Part shown: in pieces, positions 811 to 4,063 of the stretch | Position numbering within the stretch: position 1 is the first letter of the stretch | Layout: each line of letters opens with the position of its first letter | Source: a plasmid | Assembly (NCBI RefSeq): GCF_057098645.1 | Contig: NZ_JBXSPU010000006.1 | Strand: one strand, 5' to 3' | DNA: 4,063 nucleotides | Position numbers and translations under genes: made by a program | The notes under the pieces: generated by a model | What the model was told of the DNA's origin: nothing | The model's database searches: none | The model's input: the letters and a program-made list of their open reading frames with translations, nothing else

Positions 811-988
811 TTCTGCCGTAATGCCTTTTTGTAGTTTTCTTTCAGCCCCGCAGGGCGCACACAATCGAAACGGAGTGGAGATTGTATAAGTGCGCACTTC
901 GTGATTTGCCGTGCATTATGCCAGCTCAGTTTTTAAACTACCAGTGACGCGCTAAAATGCGATTTTTCATCGCGCACGGAGTTACATC
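811..988. other. Candidate oriT and divergent mobA/mobC promoter region with MOBQ-like nic-core motifs
   Basis: Intergenic region between divergent mobA and mobC. Plus strand 887-897 reads TAAGTGCGCAC. Minus strand (reverse complement of 852-860) reads GTGCGCCCT. Both resemble the RSF1010/R1162 nic core TAAGTGCGCCCT as I recall it. The two motifs sit in an imperfect inverted repeat: GCGCACACAAT (855-865) and ATTGTATAAGTGCGC (881-895). A -10-like TAAAAT lies at 953-958 upstream of mobC. Confidence 0.5.
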
Positions 989-1243
989 ATGAGCAGAACG
1001 CTCGAACAGAAGATTGCTGATGCTGAGGCGAGATTACAGCGCCTGAAGGCGAAGAGCCGGAGCCTGGACACAGCGCAGAAGGTTGTTGTGGGTGCTGCAT
1101 TGCTGGCAAAGGTCAGAAAGCCGGAGGAGGTGCAGTTGCGTGCCTGGTTACTCCAGTTCCTGAAGGCAGAGGTGACACGACAGGCTGATGTGACGCGCAT
1201 ACTGCCGCTGATTAACGAGCTGGAGGCGCTGCCAGAACAGTGA
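989..1243 (+). CDS. mobC: MobC-like mobilization accessory protein (relaxosome component), 84 aa
   Basis: ATG at 989 with a GGAG Shine-Dalgarno at 978-981 (7-nt spacer) and TGA at 1241-1243. The product contains ...AQKVVVGAALLAKV..., resembling the RSF1010 MobC motif ...RKVLVGAMILAKV... as recalled. Size and position (divergent from mobA across oriT) fit mobC. Confidence 0.65.
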   Translation: MSRTLEQKIADAEARLQRLKAKSRSLDTAQKVVVGAALLAKVRKPEEVQLRAWLLQFLKAEVTRQADVTRILPLINELEALPEQ

Positions 1244-1252
1244 TTGTATCGT

Positions 1253-1311
1253 CCGCTCGCCGCAGCCCCAGCGACCGAGCGTTAGCGAGCGAGTGGGCGA
1301 GGAAGCGGAAG
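1253..1311. other. Segment resembling the ColE1/pMB1 region downstream of ori (putative single-strand initiation / primosome assembly site)
   Basis: CCGCTCGCCGCAGCCCCAGCGACCGAGCGTTAGCGAGCGAGTGGGCGAGGAAGCGGAAG aligns at roughly 80% identity to the pBR322/pUC backbone sequence CCGCTCGCCGCAGCCGAACGACCGAGCGCAGCGAGTCAGTGAGCGAGGAAGCGGAAG, recalled from memory. That sequence lies in the region I remember as containing a PriA-dependent pas/rri site. It contains the inverted repeat GCTCGC...GCGAGC. Confidence 0.4.
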
Positions 1312-1483
1312 TGAATCAGTCGCCAGGTTGAGCACATACGCACGGTTTTTCGGCAGGTGATATGCGCTGAACCCGCATGAATACTGGGTTTCCACAGGGT
1401 TGGAGGGGGTGTATTCGAAACTTGCAATTCTGCTTTATTGCAACGCATTGTTTTTATTGGTTTTTTGTTTTCAGCACCCCAAG

Positions 1484-1492
1484 TTATCCACA
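1484..1492 (+). promoter_or_regulatory. DnaA box, perfect match to consensus TTATCCACA
   Basis: TTATCCACA at 1484-1492, immediately upstream of the AT-rich region and iterons, the typical place for a DnaA box in Rep_3 origins such as pSC101. Confidence 0.6.
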
Positions 1493-1499
1493 GGCTCGC

Positions 1500-1590
1500 C
1501 GTTAAGTTTTTAAGATCTTATTTTTAGATCTTTTTTTTTAAAACCTTTTTAGGTCTTGTAACACCATGATTTTAAAGATGTTCTGGCAAG
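1500..1590. other. AT-rich region of oriV (candidate DNA unwinding element) with two AGATCT (GATC) sites
   Basis: Strongly AT-rich, with T-runs (e.g. 1531-1539). AGATCT occurs at 1513-1518 and 1526-1531. It lies between the DnaA box and the iterons. Confidence 0.5.
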
Positions 1591-1594
1591 ATAA

Positions 1595-1678
1595 GTGGAG
1601 CTTTTGGGGGTGAAAGGTGGAGCTTTTGGGGGTGAAAGGTGGAGCTTTTGGGGGTGAAAGGTGGAGCTTTTGGGGGTG
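1595..1678 (+). repeat. Iterons: three perfect tandem 22-bp direct repeats (GTGGAGCTTTTGGGGGTGAAAG) plus a fourth 18-bp partial copy; RepA binding sites of oriV
   Basis: Perfect copies at 1595-1616, 1617-1638 and 1639-1660; partial copy at 1661-1678. The repeats are contiguous with no spacers and lie about 100 bp upstream of repA. A 22-bp unit is roughly two helical turns. Confidence 0.9.
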
Positions 1679-1687
1679 TAATCCACA
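1679..1687 (+). promoter_or_regulatory. DnaA-box-like sequence TAATCCACA (8/9 to consensus) abutting the last iteron
   Basis: TAATCCACA at 1679-1687 has one mismatch to TTATCCACA. The iteron array would then be flanked by DnaA boxes. Confidence 0.35.
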
Positions 1688-1698
1688 GAAAAAGGGGG

Positions 1699-1728
1699 TT
1701 GCAAAAAAAAAACTTCCACCCATATGAT
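1699..1728 (+). promoter_or_regulatory. Candidate sigma70 promoter of repA
   Basis: TTGCAA at 1699-1704, an 18-bp spacer, then TATGAT at 1723-1728, about 50 bp upstream of the repA ATG. Confidence 0.4.
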
Positions 1729-1755
1729 AAGTGGCGTACAGTAAAAAAACGCCAC
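1725..1755. promoter_or_regulatory. Candidate RepA operator: inverted repeat GTGGCGT / ACGCCAC overlapping the repA promoter, with an iteron-like half-site GATAAGTGG
   Basis: GTGGCGT (1731-1737) and ACGCCAC (1749-1755) are inverted repeats separated by 11 nt. GATAAGTGG (1726-1734) matches the left end of the first iteron (GATAAGTGGAGC at 1590-1601). Rep_3 initiators commonly autorepress through such sites. Confidence 0.4.
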
Positions 1756-1776
1756 CAATAGCAACGAGCAAGCGAA

Positions 1777-2478
1777 ATGTCAGATCTGATAGCTTACAAA
1801 TCAAACGCCCTTATCGAGGCAAGCTACAAGCTCACTTTGCAGGAACAGCGCTTCCTGCTGGTCTGTATCAGCCGCCTAAAATCCGGAGAAGATTCCCCTT
1901 CGCCGGATGAACAAAAAACCATGACCATCACGGCTGCAGAGTTTCATGATGCCTTTCCTGACATGGGACGGCAGCACGCTGAAGCTAGGCTCAAGGAAGC
2001 GATAGATCGCCTCTGGGACAGGTCAGTAATCATCAAGAACGAGGAAAAACGAGAAGAGTTCCGCTGGGTGCAGTACCGGGCGCAGTATTTCAAAGGTGAG
2101 GCGAAAGTAGATATCACCTTCTCCGATGCCATCATGCCGTATCTGACACAGCTCAAGGGGCAGTTTACGCGGGTAGTCGTGAAGAACGTCTCCAGCCTTT
2201 CCAGCACCTACAGCATCCGCATTTACGAGCTGCTCCAGCAGTTCCGCAGCACCGGTGACAGAACGATAGCTATCGATGATTTCCGAACCATGCTTGCCGT
2301 TGAAGATAAATATCAACAATTCAAAGACTTGAATAAGATGATAATCAAGCCAGCCATCGCCGAACTGAACGAAAAAAGCGATCTGGTTGTAGCTGTTGAG
2401 ACGATCAAAAAGGGGCGCACGGTTGTAGCCCTGCATTTTCGCTTCAAGGAAGACAAACAGATCAAGATGACGATCTAA
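1777..2478 (+). CDS. repA: Rep_3-family plasmid replication initiator (iteron-binding RepA), 233 aa
   Basis: ATG at 1777 and TAA at 2476-2478. The product has MSDLIAYKSNALIEASYKLTLQEQRFLL... and ...ITFSDAIMPYLTQLKGQFT...YSIRIYELL..., matching the pattern of pSC101-type RepA as recalled (MSELVVFKANELAISRYDLTEHETKLIL..., ...LTFSEEILPYLFQLKK...YSMRIYEWLL...). It sits directly downstream of the iterons. Confidence 0.9.
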   Translation: MSDLIAYKSNALIEASYKLTLQEQRFLLVCISRLKSGEDSPSPDEQKTMTITAAEFHDAFPDMGRQHAEARLKEAIDRLWDRSVIIKNEEKREEFRWVQYRAQYFKGEAKVDITFSDAIMPYLTQLKGQFTRVVVKNVSSLSSTYSIRIYELLQQFRSTGDRTIAIDDFRTMLAVEDKYQQFKDLNKMIIKPAIAELNEKSDLVVAVETIKKGRTVVALHFRFKEDKQIKMTI

Positions 2479-2499
2479 AATCGATTTTAAGGCACCTAA

Positions 2500-2523
2500 A
2501 ACGCTCCCTGCTGCGTTTTTTTT
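2500..2523 (+). terminator. Possible weak intrinsic terminator of repA
   Basis: Short stem AACGC (2500-2504) / GCGTT (2513-2517) with an 8-nt loop, followed by a run of 8 T (2516-2523), about 25 nt after the repA stop. The stem is short, so this is low confidence. Confidence 0.3.
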
Positions 2524-2585
2524 GTGTTAGTAGTGCGAAGGTACTATTGAAGTGAAAAATTGCGTCAAAAACGCTCTGATGCAGC

Positions 2586-2612
2586 GAAAAAAGACCCCCC
2601 AATTTTTGGGGG
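2586..2612 (-). terminator. Intrinsic terminator on the minus strand (for the long minus-strand ORF / mobA)
   Basis: On the minus strand: CCCCCAA-AAA-TTGGGGG hairpin (plus 2596-2612), then G, UC and a U7 tract (plus A-run 2586-2592). It lies about 115 nt downstream of the ORF stop at 2726. Confidence 0.5.
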
Positions 2613-2725
2613 CGGAAAAACAAAACTATGCTTGCGTTATGTGAGTGTGCTTCTTGCATTCATCCCTGTCGATGAACATCGACGAACATAACACGATGTT
2701 AAACAAAACAAAATATTGTTCACAT

Positions 2726-4063
2726 TCACTGTGACCAACCGCGATCATGTCTCCTCTCGGTGGTGTGTGTTCGTGCATCTTCCTCGCGCTGCCATTCCTC
2801 CCAGGTACGATTAAAACCCAGCGAGCGGAACAGATGATCCGGCTGTTTTTCTGGTGTGTTGACGGCAGCAAAAAGCGGTGCCTCACGGGTTTTCAGATGA
2901 AACTGCATCAGTTCTGGTGCAGGTGATATGTGGCTGTCTGCATCGTGATTTACGGCAACACCATACCCTGCATACCGTAACCCCTTATCGGTCAGCGCAC
3001 TGATGACCAGATGCCTGTTATCGGCTGAGGGAACGGCAAACGCGGGATACAGCGTACCATTAAGCCGGATAACACCGCCCAGAGAGTCATCCACGCCCAT
3101 GACCAGCAAAAGCTGAAGCTGGCGGGTTTCCCGGTCGACAGAACTCATGACCGGCATCAGCGTCGGTGGCAGACGTCCCTGCATAAAATCCACCTTCCTT
3201 GCCGCTGGTGATGGCATGGCTGGCTGGCGGTCTTCTCCAAGACAGAAAGACTCCGGCCATGTCTTCGGCTGGCGGAGATTGCGGGTATGTTGCGGCCATG
3301 TCTGGCAAACCTGCGTCAGCAGTTGCTCAAAGGTTGCAGAGGAATAAACACGTTGCAGTGGCGGACGTTGGCCGATTTCGCTTCGGTCACAGATATAACC
3401 ACTCCTGTCACGCATTAAATCAACACTCTCAAAGATTCTGGTGCGGTATTTCTCCAGCTCGTTCCCCCAGAGCGTATATTCTCCGTTCCGGTTGTGAAGC
3501 AGAAGGTAACAGGTCATTTCCCCGTTACCAGGCATGGGAGCCTCGCCATACCCCGTAACGACTGCTCTCAGCACCCCTGAATCCATAACGGCATTGTCAT
3601 TTTTCCTGAGCTGCTCCGCGCGACTACGTTCAGTATCTTCCTGTTCCTTCCGGCGCAATTCCTCTTCACGTTTAAGCAACTGGGCTCTGAGAGCTGCAAG
3701 GCCGGATTCCCCCCACTGCTGCCACTGTTTTTCAAATGCCATCTGACTCGCGGGAATGTCCTGTTTCTCCACCTTCCGGTAATGCTGTCGTAATTTTTCC
3801 ATTTGCTGGCTCAGAGACTGGATTTTTCCCTGCTCACTACGGTATTCCGGTGCCGCCCATTGCATCAGGGGAATACGGGAAAAACCGGACGAAAACGGCG
3901 ATGATTTTTTCAGGCTGGCAGCATGGCTCATCGCTTCCTTTCGTTCGGTGTTCAGCTCTTCCCAGCGTCTGCGCGTCGCCTGCATATCTGCCATCATCGA
4001 CATGGCATTACTGGTGAGTTTCCATGCCGAGTTACTGTCCTTCGGCAACGCTTCGATAATGTC
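2726..4063 (-). CDS. mobA: Long ORF with complete 3' end and frame open to the right window edge; most likely the C-terminal ~445 codons of mobA continuing across the junction of a circular molecule, otherwise a 5'-truncated gene of unknown function
   Basis: Minus-strand frame has no stop from 4063 down to TGA at 2726-2728. E. coli-like codon usage (CTG-rich). The supplied track starts at a TTG at 4048, but five further sense codons (DIIEA) precede it up to the edge, and no in-window ATG has a convincing Shine-Dalgarno. The last codon at the right edge (4061-4063) and the mobA codon at the left edge (1-3) are both complete, so on a 4063-bp circle the two ORFs join in frame (...SYTLR|DIIEALPKDSNSAWKL...) into about 715 aa. 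The N-terminal ~150 residues of this part are charged and helical (e.g. LLKREEELRRKEQEDTERSRAEQLRKN); the remainder is globular with no Walker A or other motif I can recognise. Confidence 0.6.
   Translation of the reverse strand, partial: DIIEALPKDSNSAWKLTSNAMSMMADMQATRRRWEELNTERKEAMSHAASLKKSSPFSSGFSRIPLMQWAAPEYRSEQGKIQSLSQQMEKLRQHYRKVEKQDIPASQMAFEKQWQQWGESGLAALRAQLLKREEELRRKEQEDTERSRAEQLRKNDNAVMDSGVLRAVVTGYGEAPMPGNGEMTCYLLLHNRNGEYTLWGNELEKYRTRIFESVDLMRDRSGYICDRSEIGQRPPLQRVYSSATFEQLLTQVCQTWPQHTRNLRQPKTWPESFCLGEDRQPAMPSPAARKVDFMQGRLPPTLMPVMSSVDRETRQLQLLLVMGVDDSLGGVIRLNGTLYPAFAVPSADNRHLVISALTDKGLRYAGYGVAVNHDADSHISPAPELMQFHLKTREAPLFAAVNTPEKQPDHLFRSLGFNRTWEEWQREEDARTHTTERRHDRGWSQ

Follow-up and report, generated by a model that had tools for sequence, protein, structure and literature searches.

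The DNA analysed here (the window) is a complete circular E. coli plasmid of 4,063 bp that is 100% identical to pEC224_6 and to many other records, and it belongs to the MOBQ41/pIGWZ12 family of small cryptic plasmids of about 4 kb, which are very common in E. coli. Its annotation (MobQ relaxase, MobC and MOB-suite rep_cluster_1778) and its backbone, which combines a MOBQ4-type relaxase, mobC and oriT with a Rep_3 replicon, are those of this family. The window-type cassette was found in 160 records from 159 genomes, that is, in 159 of the 5,426 complete E. coli genomes (~3%). Upstream of its replication gene, a DnaA box is followed by the stretch where the plasmid's duplex is least stable, which holds 13-mers resembling those of oriC and two GATC sites. 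Then come four iterons of 22 bp, another DnaA box and the repA promoter, on either side of which lie two operator-like inverted repeats (Table 1). This order and spacing are kept in 16 further family loci, while the iteron sequence changes. We conclude with high confidence that positions 1388-1760 are the oriV and control region of a Rep_3 iteron-type theta replicon, whose initiator gene, repA, follows directly. The original prediction had described a complete oriV layout at this place, and each of the elements that it listed was recovered, in agreement with the adjacent Rep_3 gene, the family membership and the conserved layout.

Table 1. Features of the origin region and of repA in the 4,063-bp window
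Feature	Position	Strand	Details
Distal DnaA-like box GTTTCCACA	1388-1396	+	One mismatch to TTWTNCACA; motif count not above chance
DnaA box 1 TTATCCACA	1484-1492	+	Perfect 9-mer consensus
A+T-rich DNA-unwinding element	1502-1561		13-mer-like repeats at 1507-1557; GATC at 1514-1517 and 1527-1530
IHF-like site AATCATGGTGTTA (candidate)	1559-1571	-	One mismatch; status uncertain
Four 22-bp iterons, unit GTGGAGCTTTTGGGGGTGAAAG	1595-1616, 1617-1638, 1639-1660, 1661-1682	+	Tandem-repeat and motif search
DnaA box 2 TAATCCACA	1679-1687	+	One mismatch; adjoins last iteron
IR1, upstream operator-like inverted repeat	1694-1720		GGGGGTT (1694-1700, weak arm), 13 bp, TTCCACC (1714-1720)
Putative repA promoter	1699-1728	+	TTGCAA (-35), 18 bp, TATGAT (-10); consensus scan only
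IR2, predicted operator	1730-1756		AGTGGCG (1730-1736), 13 bp, CGCCACC (1750-1756); just downstream of -10
repA, 233-aa Rep_3 initiator with WH1 and WH2	1777-2478	+	Pfam; RefSeq WP_001281395.1, replication initiation protein
Probable repA terminator	2498-2527	+	Hairpin AAAACGC...GCGTTTT, then T-run

The iteron array and the A+T-rich minimum are far beyond what chance would give, while the DnaA boxes, the GATC sites and the promoter are individually not, and we retain these last three only because their position is conserved in the relatives. The A+T-rich stretch with two AGATCT sites (1513-1518 and 1526-1531) that had been noted earlier was confirmed by its low GC content (0.27-0.30 over 1450-1599), and no 60-bp duplex anywhere in the plasmid is less stable than the one at 1502-1561 within it (dG of -63.3 against a mean of -85.0 and a standard deviation of 5.2, more than 4 standard deviations below the mean). 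Matches to the oriC 13-mer consensus GATCTNTTNTTTT with at most two mismatches number 7 for 1.6 expected, one of them, GATCTTTTTTTTT at 1527-1539, agreeing at 13 of 13 positions, and TRF reported period-13 repeats in the same element. Both the 13-mer repeats and the GATC sites of this element are conserved in the relatives. GATC enrichment was rejected as evidence in itself: this motif is under-represented in the plasmid (10 found vs 15.5 expected). IHF-like matches in the window number 8 for 3.0 expected, and the position and strand of the candidate site, which carries one mismatch, are not strictly conserved: pIGWZ12 has a perfect IHF-like sequence, AATCAATATGTTA, on the + strand some 15 bp to the right of this place, and one-mismatch sites occur in other variants.

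Counted as motifs, the DnaA boxes are not significant (two or more boxes occurred in 28 of 200 shuffles). Box 1, which lies where it had been predicted and is a perfect 9-mer, reads TTATCCACA or TTTTCCACA in each of the 12 origins scanned, and it lies 194-196 bp upstream of box 2 in 11 of these 12, L004 having been left out of the measurement. The distal box has the counterpart TTTCCACAG at the same place in all relatives with a MOBQ41 backbone and, in the Klebsiella/Enterobacter relatives, TTATTCACA at a similar location. The second DnaA-like box that had been proposed is also present, and its position is kept in every relative, as TTATTCACA, TTATCCACA, ATATTCACA, ATATCCACA or TAATCCACA, with the iterons changing beside it.

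The predicted iteron array was confirmed by TRF (22 bp x 3.8 copies over 1595-1678, 100% matches, score 168), and a search for the 22-mer at up to three mismatches gave four matches in the plasmid vs none in 200 shuffles. The array, whose fourth unit merges into DnaA box 2 by its last four bases, ends 95 bp upstream of repA. All four matches at this threshold lie within 1595-1682, so that no second, incA-like cluster was detected downstream of repA. Considering that the iteron copies are 100% identical, as after a recent duplication, one could view the array as a recent slippage expansion without function. We regard this as extremely improbable: in every diverged relative, three or four units are arrayed at the same position, with an unchanged period and the same boxes beside them but another unit sequence, some of these arrays are made of heterogeneous units, and changes in the unit go together with changes in Rep and in the operators. 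Three short ORFs that run across the iterons (1538-1804 and 1549-1764 on the - strand, 1639-1761 on the + strand) were taken as artefacts of the repeats.

A different question is whether TAATCCACA is a DnaA box at all, or rather part of a fifth, degenerate but in-phase iteron (1678-1699, GTAATCCACAGAAAAAGGGGGT) that would be a RepA site. The repeat search places 1656-1699 in a 22-bp register with 70% identity and a G5T core in phase, a period-44 array reported by TRF reaches 1699, and box 2 has one mismatch to the DnaA consensus. Yet the motif [T/A][T/A]AT[C/T]CACA is fixed at this position in every relative, including as the perfect TTATTCACA and TTATCCACA, next to iterons that are entirely different; a constant motif beside changing iterons fits a host-factor site and not a Rep-specific one, and for the in-phase G5 the left arm of IR1 is the better explanation. 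We therefore find a fifth iteron unlikely and read 1679-1687 as a DnaA box. The G5 core of the iteron had also been said to recur elsewhere in the window, and it does so at 1403-1412 and 2594-2613, but both occurrences are unrelated to the iterons. As an additional RepA site, the first (GGAGGGGGTG) was rejected on the ground that it is identical in variants whose iterons have no G5, and the second, a palindrome, on the ground that it is conserved in pIGWZ12 and in L010, where the iterons also lack G5; in L012 its stem is kept and its loop changed. By its sequence, this palindrome is a terminator, because, read on the - strand, it gives a hairpin with a T-run after it, and it lies downstream of the relaxase stop.

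The promoter and the inverted-repeat operator that had been predicted upstream of repA are both in place, except that the operators are two, IR1 and IR2, and not one. The promoter is the sole consensus match on the + strand upstream of repA; its -35 is poorly conserved in the relatives and the match is by itself not significant (2 found vs 1.5 expected). IR1 overlaps the -35 hexamer and its left arm has 3 mismatches out of 7 in the window; the same 7+13+7 geometry is found at -83/-63 in L016, L004, L017 and L012, where the arms match the 5' half of the plasmid's own iteron. IR2 can also be read as GTGGCGT N12 ACGCCAC (1731-1756), with arms that repeat the iteron 5' half GGTGGAG as inverted copies, and its geometry is identical in L003, L016, L004 (GGTAATA N13 TATTACC), L017 and L012. 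An iteron-derived inverted repeat at the rep promoter, from which autoregulation is predicted, is a characteristic of Rep_3 replicons. Downstream of repA, the terminator hairpin has a predicted RNA fold of -12.5 kcal/mol (z = -2.9) and is conserved in the relatives.

Several other properties place the window in the Rep_3 iteron-type theta class (pPS10/pSC101/F/R6K): a tandem WH1 + WH2 initiator, direct iterons within the 17-22-bp range next to rep, and an A+T-rich unwinding element with DnaA boxes beside the iterons. Both Pfam domains of RepA scored above their curated cut-offs (Rep3_N, E=9e-41; Rep3_C, E=1e-21), and sequence searches of the PDB matched 1hkq, 2z9o, 1rep and 2nra. An AlphaFold model of moderate confidence (pLDDT 74, pTM 0.52) gave RepE, pi and RepA as top Foldseek matches, among them the RepE dimer-operator (2z9o), RepE54-iteron (1rep) and pi-iteron (2nra) complexes. 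The closest solved relatives are thus pPS10 RepA, F RepE and R6K pi, with structures that include iteron and operator complexes. The best sequence match is the WH1 domain of pPS10 RepA (1hkq, E=2e-13, TM 0.77 on the target, ~35% identity over WH1), whereas F RepE and R6K pi share the two-winged-helix fold with RepA at 16-21% identity.

The original prediction had likened this origin to a pSC101/P1-type arrangement. The part that stands is the likeness to pSC101, and also to pPS10, whereas the resemblance to P1 is limited to the DnaA boxes on both sides and the GATC sites in the A+T-rich part. In pSC101, a DnaA box is followed by an AT-rich region with an IHF site, the iterons, IR1 and IR2 overlapping the repA promoter, and repA. 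As judged from this established description, the order in the window is the same, with sequence kinship at the level of the Rep_3 family, but pSC101 has three iterons and a par locus, while the window has four iterons and an uncertain IHF site. At the origin of pPS10, 22-bp iterons stand in a contiguous run of four, together with a DnaA box and an AT-rich region; the operator of its repA is an inverted repeat of part of the iteron, and its RepA initiates as a monomer and represses as a dimer. Compared by description, pPS10 differs in its iteron sequence and host, and the window has two bracketing DnaA boxes and two tandem operators. The origin of P1, oriR, has DnaA boxes at both ends and GATC sites in its AT-rich part; it differs from the window, which has four 22-bp iterons and no incA-like array downstream of repA, by its five 19-bp iterons and incA array, and P1 RepA was not among the homologues detected for RepA in the PDB sequence search. 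Neither the separate incC iteron cluster of F nor the seven iterons and three origins of R6K are found in the window.

A Col-type replicon had also been suggested, and this holds only as far as 'Col-type' is a PlasmidFinder label, the window not being a ColE1-type RNA replicon. Replication of the ColE1 (RNA-primed) or ColE2 type, with the repeats incidental, could be proposed from this suggested typing, from a family relative with another iteron type (L019) that its depositor named pMTY2330_Col8282, and from the sister MOBQ42 plasmids, which use ColE2-type replicons. In ColE2-type replicons (MOBQ42, PlasmidFinder Col156), a Rep primase acts with a 32-bp origin downstream of rep; the PlasmidFinder reference for Col8282 is presumably DQ995352. 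Against this, searches of both strands for RNAII/RNAI, ColE2-type RNAs or any other Rfam family gave no match at E<=1, the Pfam search returned only Rep_3 domains and not the ColE2 Rep primase domains PF03090/PF08708, and the sole replication protein is of the Rep_3 type, so that we give practically no weight to a Col mechanism.

Having placed the origin in the Rep_3 class, we compared it with that of pIGWZ12 (NC_010885), the MOBQ41/Rep_3 prototype among small cryptic plasmids of Enterobacteriaceae, which falls into the same rep_cluster_1778. Outside 1512-2400 the two plasmids are 95-100% identical, and the parts so conserved are the MOBQ relaxase, oriT, mobC, DnaA box 1, the left part of the A+T-rich element, the last 26 Rep codons and the terminators. 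In contrast, the ori-rep cassettes share only ~66% identity (59-78% across about 1512-2400), although they have the same layout of DnaA boxes, 13-mer/GATC repeats, four iterons, DnaA box, promoter with inverted repeats and rep. About 8 of the 22 iteron positions differ between the window (GTGGAGCTTTTGGGGGTGAAAG) and pIGWZ12 (GTGGAGGAATTTAAGGTAAAG), in the central and 3' part (CTTTTGGGGG vs GAATTTAAGG), and the spacing is a uniform 22 bp in the window vs 21/23/21 in pIGWZ12. The Rep proteins are 80% identical, with 233 residues and His67 in the window vs 230 residues and Asn67 in pIGWZ12. The replicon of the K. pneumoniae plasmid p56661-6.9 is closer to the window cassette (88.8%) but lies on a different backbone. 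Compared in their iteron and Rep sequences, the window does not share the specificity of the prototype, and from these sequence differences a different incompatibility specificity is expected. The origin is thus ordinary in kind and belongs to a family that has already been studied; what is new is its own matched set of repeats, operator and initiator. As an origin it is textbook material; public records of this plasmid type annotate genes only, and its oriV is now well delimited and annotated.

P1 and F have separate iteron clusters whose role is in control only. The array of the window might similarly serve mostly for copy control and incompatibility, by titrating or handcuffing RepA, with initiation elsewhere on the plasmid, all the more as the iterons of pIGWZ12 are reported to be its incompatibility determinants (PMC6856555, a second-hand source for this plasmid). 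We consider this very unlikely. The window has a single iteron cluster, which adjoins the least stable duplex and the DnaA boxes, and a natural 1,667-bp derivative retains just the origin region and repA; moreover, the two roles are not exclusive, the iterons of an origin also exerting incompatibility. Two circular E. coli plasmid records of 1,667 bp have been deposited (CP125000.1 and CP124992.1). We aligned the first (pKSE-C11_5), which consists of nothing but positions 1149-2808 of the window at 99.3% identity, and know the second by its same length; such records could in principle be assembly artefacts. The natural mini-plasmid gives indirect support to the idea that the ori and rep segment may suffice for replication, and the co-variation of Rep residues with the iterons gives support of the same indirect kind to the predicted binding of the iterons by Rep. 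The same second-hand source reports that the family origin was mapped experimentally upstream of rep, with iterons, an A+T-rich region and DnaA boxes, in pIGWZ12, whose iterons and Rep differ from those of the window, and that this plasmid replicates by the theta mode at about 15 copies per chromosome (PMC6856555).

We propose the following model, by analogy with pPS10, pSC101, F, R6K and RK2. RepA monomers would bind the four in-phase iterons, the C-terminal winged helix (WH2) reading the 5' half GGTGGAG and the N-terminal one (WH1) the 3' half TTTTGGGGGTG, and host DnaA would bind the boxes on either side of the array and perhaps also the distal box. A bend, possibly made by IHF, would bring the RepA and DnaA complexes together, which could then jointly open the very unstable A+T-rich element at its oriC-like 13-mers, before the host helicase and replisome are loaded for theta replication. 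The two GATC sites within the 13-mers may allow Dam/SeqA sequestration after firing. Applying the division known from F and R6K, with monomers at the iterons and dimers at the operator, RepA dimers would bind IR2 and IR1, which are built from the iteron 5' half, and since these repeats bracket the repA promoter, we propose that RepA represses its own synthesis. Copy number and incompatibility would be set by iteron titration or handcuffing.

More useful than the origin itself is the comparative result, with one cryptic backbone diversifying its replication specificity as iteron halves, operator arms and a few residues of the recognition helices change in a matched way. Operator arms matched their own iteron type 49 times in 27 cells (~1.8 per cell) vs 16 times in 54 cells (~0.3 per cell) for heterologous iteron types; the operator arms of pIGWZ12 match its own iteron poorly. 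Among 83 variable Rep columns, three classes of iteron 5' half were separated only by residues 181, 184, 187 and 188 (WH2) and two classes of 3' half only by residue 67 (WH1), in a sample of about 9 distinct types that may share a recombination history. In the AlphaFold model, these tracking residues are found where helix 3 of WH2 (182-200) and of WH1 (65-80) begins. For L016 and L017, the Rep motifs expected from the iterons were set down before the proteins were inspected, and both predictions held.

These observations led us to a joint reading that we hold to be about equally likely to prove right or wrong. The members of the pIGWZ12 family would be naturally occurring replicons that are orthogonal to one another and share a near-identical backbone, with at least six iteron/operator/Rep specificities built from two independently swappable recognition modules. 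In the first module, WH2 residues 181/184/187/188 would recognise the operator arms as well as the 5' half of the iteron, with Q-D-K going with GGTGGAG, T-S-Q with GG(T/C)AAT and D-(I/T)-R with GGTGA; in the second, WH1 residue 67 would read the 3' half, with His for GGGGGT and Asn for (G/T)AAGGT. On the same reading, the window would be a Q-D-K/His type that arose by recombination of a Klebsiella-type ori-rep cassette into an E. coli MOBQ41 backbone. If causal, this correspondence would amount to a DNA-recognition code for Rep_3 initiators, simple and readable enough to help in designing compatible vectors, and it already gives directly testable residue-to-base predictions.

If this joint reading is true, sibling plasmids would be able to escape incompatibility and co-reside. 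Strains R9, 4/4 and NR3838 each carry a window-type plasmid together with a sibling of another type. Roughly 25 genomes have two full-length family backbones, and none has two window-type cassettes vs about 2 by chance, although this excess of different-type over same-type co-residence is only suggestive. Matched changes in specificity would explain how sibling plasmids can share a cell. As of 2019, the MOBQ41 Rep had no PlasmidFinder group (PMC6856555), and current typing, with one MOB-suite rep cluster and one 'plasmid species', puts probably compatible replicons into a single group.

The window is a complete circular plasmid of 4,063 bp, with full-length matches of at least 99% identity in more than 100 plasmid records of 4,060-4,074 bp from E. 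coli, Shigella, Salmonella and Klebsiella, one of which, pEC224_6 (NZ_CP018942), is classified by MOB-suite as mobilizable, MOBQ and rep_cluster_1778. Gene coordinates are those of the RefSeq annotation carried over onto the window; since the gene of the 715-aa MobQ relaxase crosses the window ends, a linear ORF listing yields just a truncated 440-aa piece of it. The initiator RepA has both Rep_3 Pfam domains, Rep3_N/WH1 (E=9e-41) and Rep3_C/WH2 (E=1e-21). The solved structures nearest to it by sequence are pPS10 RepA-WH1 (1hkq, E=2e-13), F RepE (2z9o and 1rep, E ~1e-11) and R6K pi (2nra), and a fold search with its AlphaFold model (pLDDT 74) again returned RepA, RepE and pi, including RepE-iteron, RepE-operator and pi-iteron complexes.

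Features of the plasmid, in window coordinates
Feature	Position	Strand	Remarks
MobQ relaxase	810->1 then 4063->2726	-	RefSeq; gene spans window ends
oriT	~811-988		between divergent mobQ and mobC (PMC6856555)
mobC	989-1243		RefSeq
G5 sequence	1403-1412		GGAGGGGGTG
DnaA box 1	1484-1492		TTATCCACA
Duplex stability minimum	1502-1561		60 bp
13-mer	1527-1539		GATCTTTTTTTTT
Iterons	1595-1678		22 bp x 3.8
DnaA-like box 2	1679-1687		TAATCCACA
IR1 (putative operator)	1694-1700 / 1714-1720		GGGGGTT / TTCCACC; overlaps -35
Promoter match	1699-1728		TTGCAA-18-TATGAT
IR2 (putative operator)	1730-1736 / 1750-1756		AGTGGCG / CGCCACC; directly after -10
Inverted repeat as first predicted	1731-1756		GTGGCGT/ACGCCAC
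repA (replication initiation protein)	1777-2478		RefSeq
Probable terminator	2498-2527	+	AAAACGC/GCGTTTT hairpin then T8
Probable relaxase terminator	2594-2613	-	G5 palindrome CCCCCCAATTTTTGGGGG + T-run
Tandem repeat	2669-2689		10-bp TCGACGAACA x 2.1
DnaA-like box	2716-2724		TTGTTCACA; one mismatch

The region upstream of repA had been predicted to be a complete replication origin, and this interpretation is correct: it comprises the oriV and the control sequences of a Rep_3 iteron replicon belonging to the known pIGWZ12 family. All the predicted parts were found at the coordinates given for them, namely the first DnaA box, the A+T-rich stretch (GC 0.27-0.30) with two AGATCT sites, the perfect iteron array, the second DnaA-like box, the promoter match and the inverted repeat. 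The A+T-rich part carries 13-mer-like repeats, one of which fits the oriC 13-mer consensus at 13/13 positions, and the plasmid-wide minimum of 60-bp duplex stability reaches a dG of -63.3 kcal/mol (mean -85.0, sd 5.2). At the cost of two mismatches the fourth iteron can be traced on to 1682, and 200 shuffles gave no iteron match. Both the iteron array and the AT-rich minimum exceed chance by a wide margin; as bare motif counts, neither the DnaA boxes nor the GATC sites nor the promoter reach significance, and these need comparative evidence.

Two parts of the original prediction stood less completely. Of the proposed pSC101/P1-type layout, the likeness to pSC101 holds, pSC101 and pPS10 being the closest in layout, but the analogy with P1 is only partial, since P1 has a second iteron cluster and none was found on this plasmid. 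The G5 core of the iteron (GGGGG) does recur elsewhere in the window, but both sequences are unrelated to the iterons: the one at 1403-1412 is unchanged in variants with non-G5 iterons, and the palindrome is likewise conserved in relatives without G5 iterons. Comparison locus L012 keeps the stem with a different loop, and the palindrome's T-run lies on the - strand, so that this palindrome and the hairpin behind repA would form convergent terminators between repA and the relaxase gene. No Rfam family matched the plasmid, indicating that it has no ColE1- or ColE2-type RNA system.

The comparative evidence came from the 400 bp upstream of rep in 16 further family loci and one distant relative. 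In every family member, the order of the elements is constant: a distal DnaA-like box, DnaA box 1, a conserved GGCTCGCCGTTAAG, T-rich 13-mers (two or three of them, in most cases along with two GATC sites), a spacer that in many members holds an IHF-like site (a perfect AATCAATATGTTA in pIGWZ12), three or four iterons, a DnaA box directly after the last of these, an A-run, and inverted repeats, then rep. Boxes 1 and 2 lie 194-196 bp apart in each of the 11 origins measured, out of 12 scanned (the twelfth being L004, a Klebsiella/Enterobacter plasmid). Iterons of the window lineage are evenly spaced at 22 bp, those of the pIGWZ12 lineage at 21/23/21. Box 2 is always a recognisable DnaA box (TTATTCACA, TTATCCACA, ATATTCACA or TAATCCACA) while the adjoining iterons change completely, which speaks for a host-factor site and against a fifth iteron. 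The DnaA-like box just past the relaxase stop codon lies in a block conserved among relatives and may correspond to the fourth DnaA box that pIGWZ12 is reported to have.

The promoter region holds two convergent inverted repeats, 36 bp apart and alike in geometry (7 + 13 + 7 bp), whose arms are copies of GGTGGAG, the iteron 5' half. Among the other variants, arms match the iteron of their own plasmid (GGTAATA N13 TATTACC in L004, GGTGAAC N13 GTTTACT in L012), and when nine promoters were compared with nine heptamers, own-type combinations gave 49 hits in 27 cells versus 16 hits in 54 cells for heterologous ones; the exceptions are the weak left arm of IR1 in the window and the degenerate arms of pIGWZ12. 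A match of this sort is what Rep-dimer operators should show, and IR1 and IR2 parallel the IR1/IR2 of pSC101 and the operator of pPS10.

The iterons themselves fall into three classes by their 5' halves (GGTGGAG, GG(T/C)AAT and GGTGA(N)) and two by their 3' halves (GGGGGT and (G/T)AAGGT). When all 83 variable Rep columns were scanned with no prior choice, over about nine distinct types and ignoring kinship, the 5' classes were separated only by residues 181, 184, 187 and 188 (Q-D-K-(M/I), T-S-Q-(L/Q) or D-(I/T)-R-(D/A)) and the 3' classes only by residue 67 (His or Asn). The third helix of winged-helix domains is the canonical recognition helix, and in the moderate-confidence model these helices span 65-80 in WH1 and 182-200 in WH2. 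Every residue state is found in the window/Klebsiella clade of Rep backbones as well as in that of pIGWZ12, and the Rep motifs of L016 and L017, two Klebsiella/Enterobacter plasmids, were foretold from their iterons before inspection, correctly in both cases (2/2). These predictions support a reading in which WH2 would recognise the iteron 5' half and the operator arms, and WH1 the 3' half, the division of labour known for RepE and pPS10 RepA. Some arrays are mixed: in L007, L013 and L019, whose Rep is of the T-S-Q type and whose arrays lie ~110-190 bp ahead of rep, the third iteron bears a 5' half of pIGWZ12 type, GGTGGAG or GGTGGGG, among GGTAATATG/GGCAATATG iterons, and the arrays of L006, L008 and L009 are likewise internally heterogeneous; these may be recombination relics or a sign of relaxed specificity.

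The plasmid is a member of the pIGWZ12/MOBQ41 group, and pIGWZ12 (NC_010885, 4,072 bp) has an identical gene set and rep cluster. A passage of PMC6856555 describes pIGWZ12 as stable, theta-replicating and present at ~15 copies; as its origin is reported to have been mapped experimentally, this kind of element is already known, and ours is a new specificity member within the family, not a new kind of element. In a full-length pairwise alignment, identity falls to 59-78% over ~1512-2400, against 94-100% per 100-bp bin outside this cassette, which spans the right AT-rich part, the iterons (GTGGAGCTTTTGGGGGTGAAAG in the window versus GTGGAGGAATTTAAGGTAAAG in pIGWZ12), the promoter with its operators, and the first ~208 repA codons; the Rep proteins are 80% identical. 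The replicon of K. pneumoniae p56661-6.9, a plasmid whose different backbone has traD and a RelE/ParE toxin, shares 88.8% identity with the window cassette (1449-2469). From this, the window appears to combine a MOBQ41 backbone with an ori-rep module of Klebsiella/Enterobacter lineage, joined in the 13-mer region and within repA. The nearest ori-rep relatives, L004, L016 and L017 (3.6-6.9 kb, Rep 88-94% identical), are built on another backbone that has traD, a different MobA/MobL relaxase and a RelE/ParE toxin-antitoxin pair, so the module moves between backbones; L017 has three iterons instead of four. The next-nearest Rep (45% identity) is that of L020, Neisseria gonorrhoeae plasmid pC with blaTEM-1, where positions 1-1200 follow a similar plan, with an AT-rich region, an IHF site that fits the consensus perfectly (AATCAATAAGTTA), four iterons of 22 bp (TTATACGACAACAAATTTCCTG) and a full inverted iteron directly before the ATG; no obvious DnaA box was seen there.

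The literature consulted, PMC6856555 included, treats MOBQ41 as one replicon, and in it we met no account of variants that differ in specificity, of such variants sharing a cell, or of a match between Rep residues and iteron half-sites. As an origin the element is ordinary; what would repay experiment is the lead towards a recognition code. As judged from deposited sequences, different specificity types do share cells: a single assembly of strain R9 (GCF_030707935.1) holds pR9-658-5 (window type) and pR9-658-4 (GGTAAT/AAGGT type), with mob backbones 97% identical and iterons and promoter unalignable, and further pairs occur in strains 4/4 (CP023833, window type, and CP023832) and NR3838 (AP040238 and AP040237). 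In a set of 5,426 complete E. coli genomes, matches to a conserved backbone probe numbered 659 records from 573 genomes (ColE2-type MOBQ42 sisters included), and those to the window-type cassette 160 records from 159 genomes, which is consistent with same-type exclusion without being statistically decisive. Chromosomal matches occurred in 4 and 2 places, respectively. The 2019 MOBQ4 paper (PMC6856555) states that the MOBQ41 Rep belonged to no PlasmidFinder group; the depositor's name for L019 (NZ_CP128962.1), pMTY2330_Col8282, implies that PlasmidFinder types at least its iteron variant as Col8282.

Two 1,667-bp plasmids encoding this Rep, pKSE-C11_5 (CP125000.1) and CP124992.1, were deposited as complete and circular from Ugandan sewage E. 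coli. CP125000.1 corresponds to window 1149-2808 only (99.3% identity), with the origin, repA and short flanks and without relaxase or oriT; if the records are genuine, these would be natural versions of the minimal-replicon experiment. The copy number of the 10-bp tandem repeat is variable, an extra GAACATCGAA being inserted at 2673 in the 1,667-bp mini-plasmid and in 4,073-bp plasmid versions, which explains the two size classes, 4063 and 4073.
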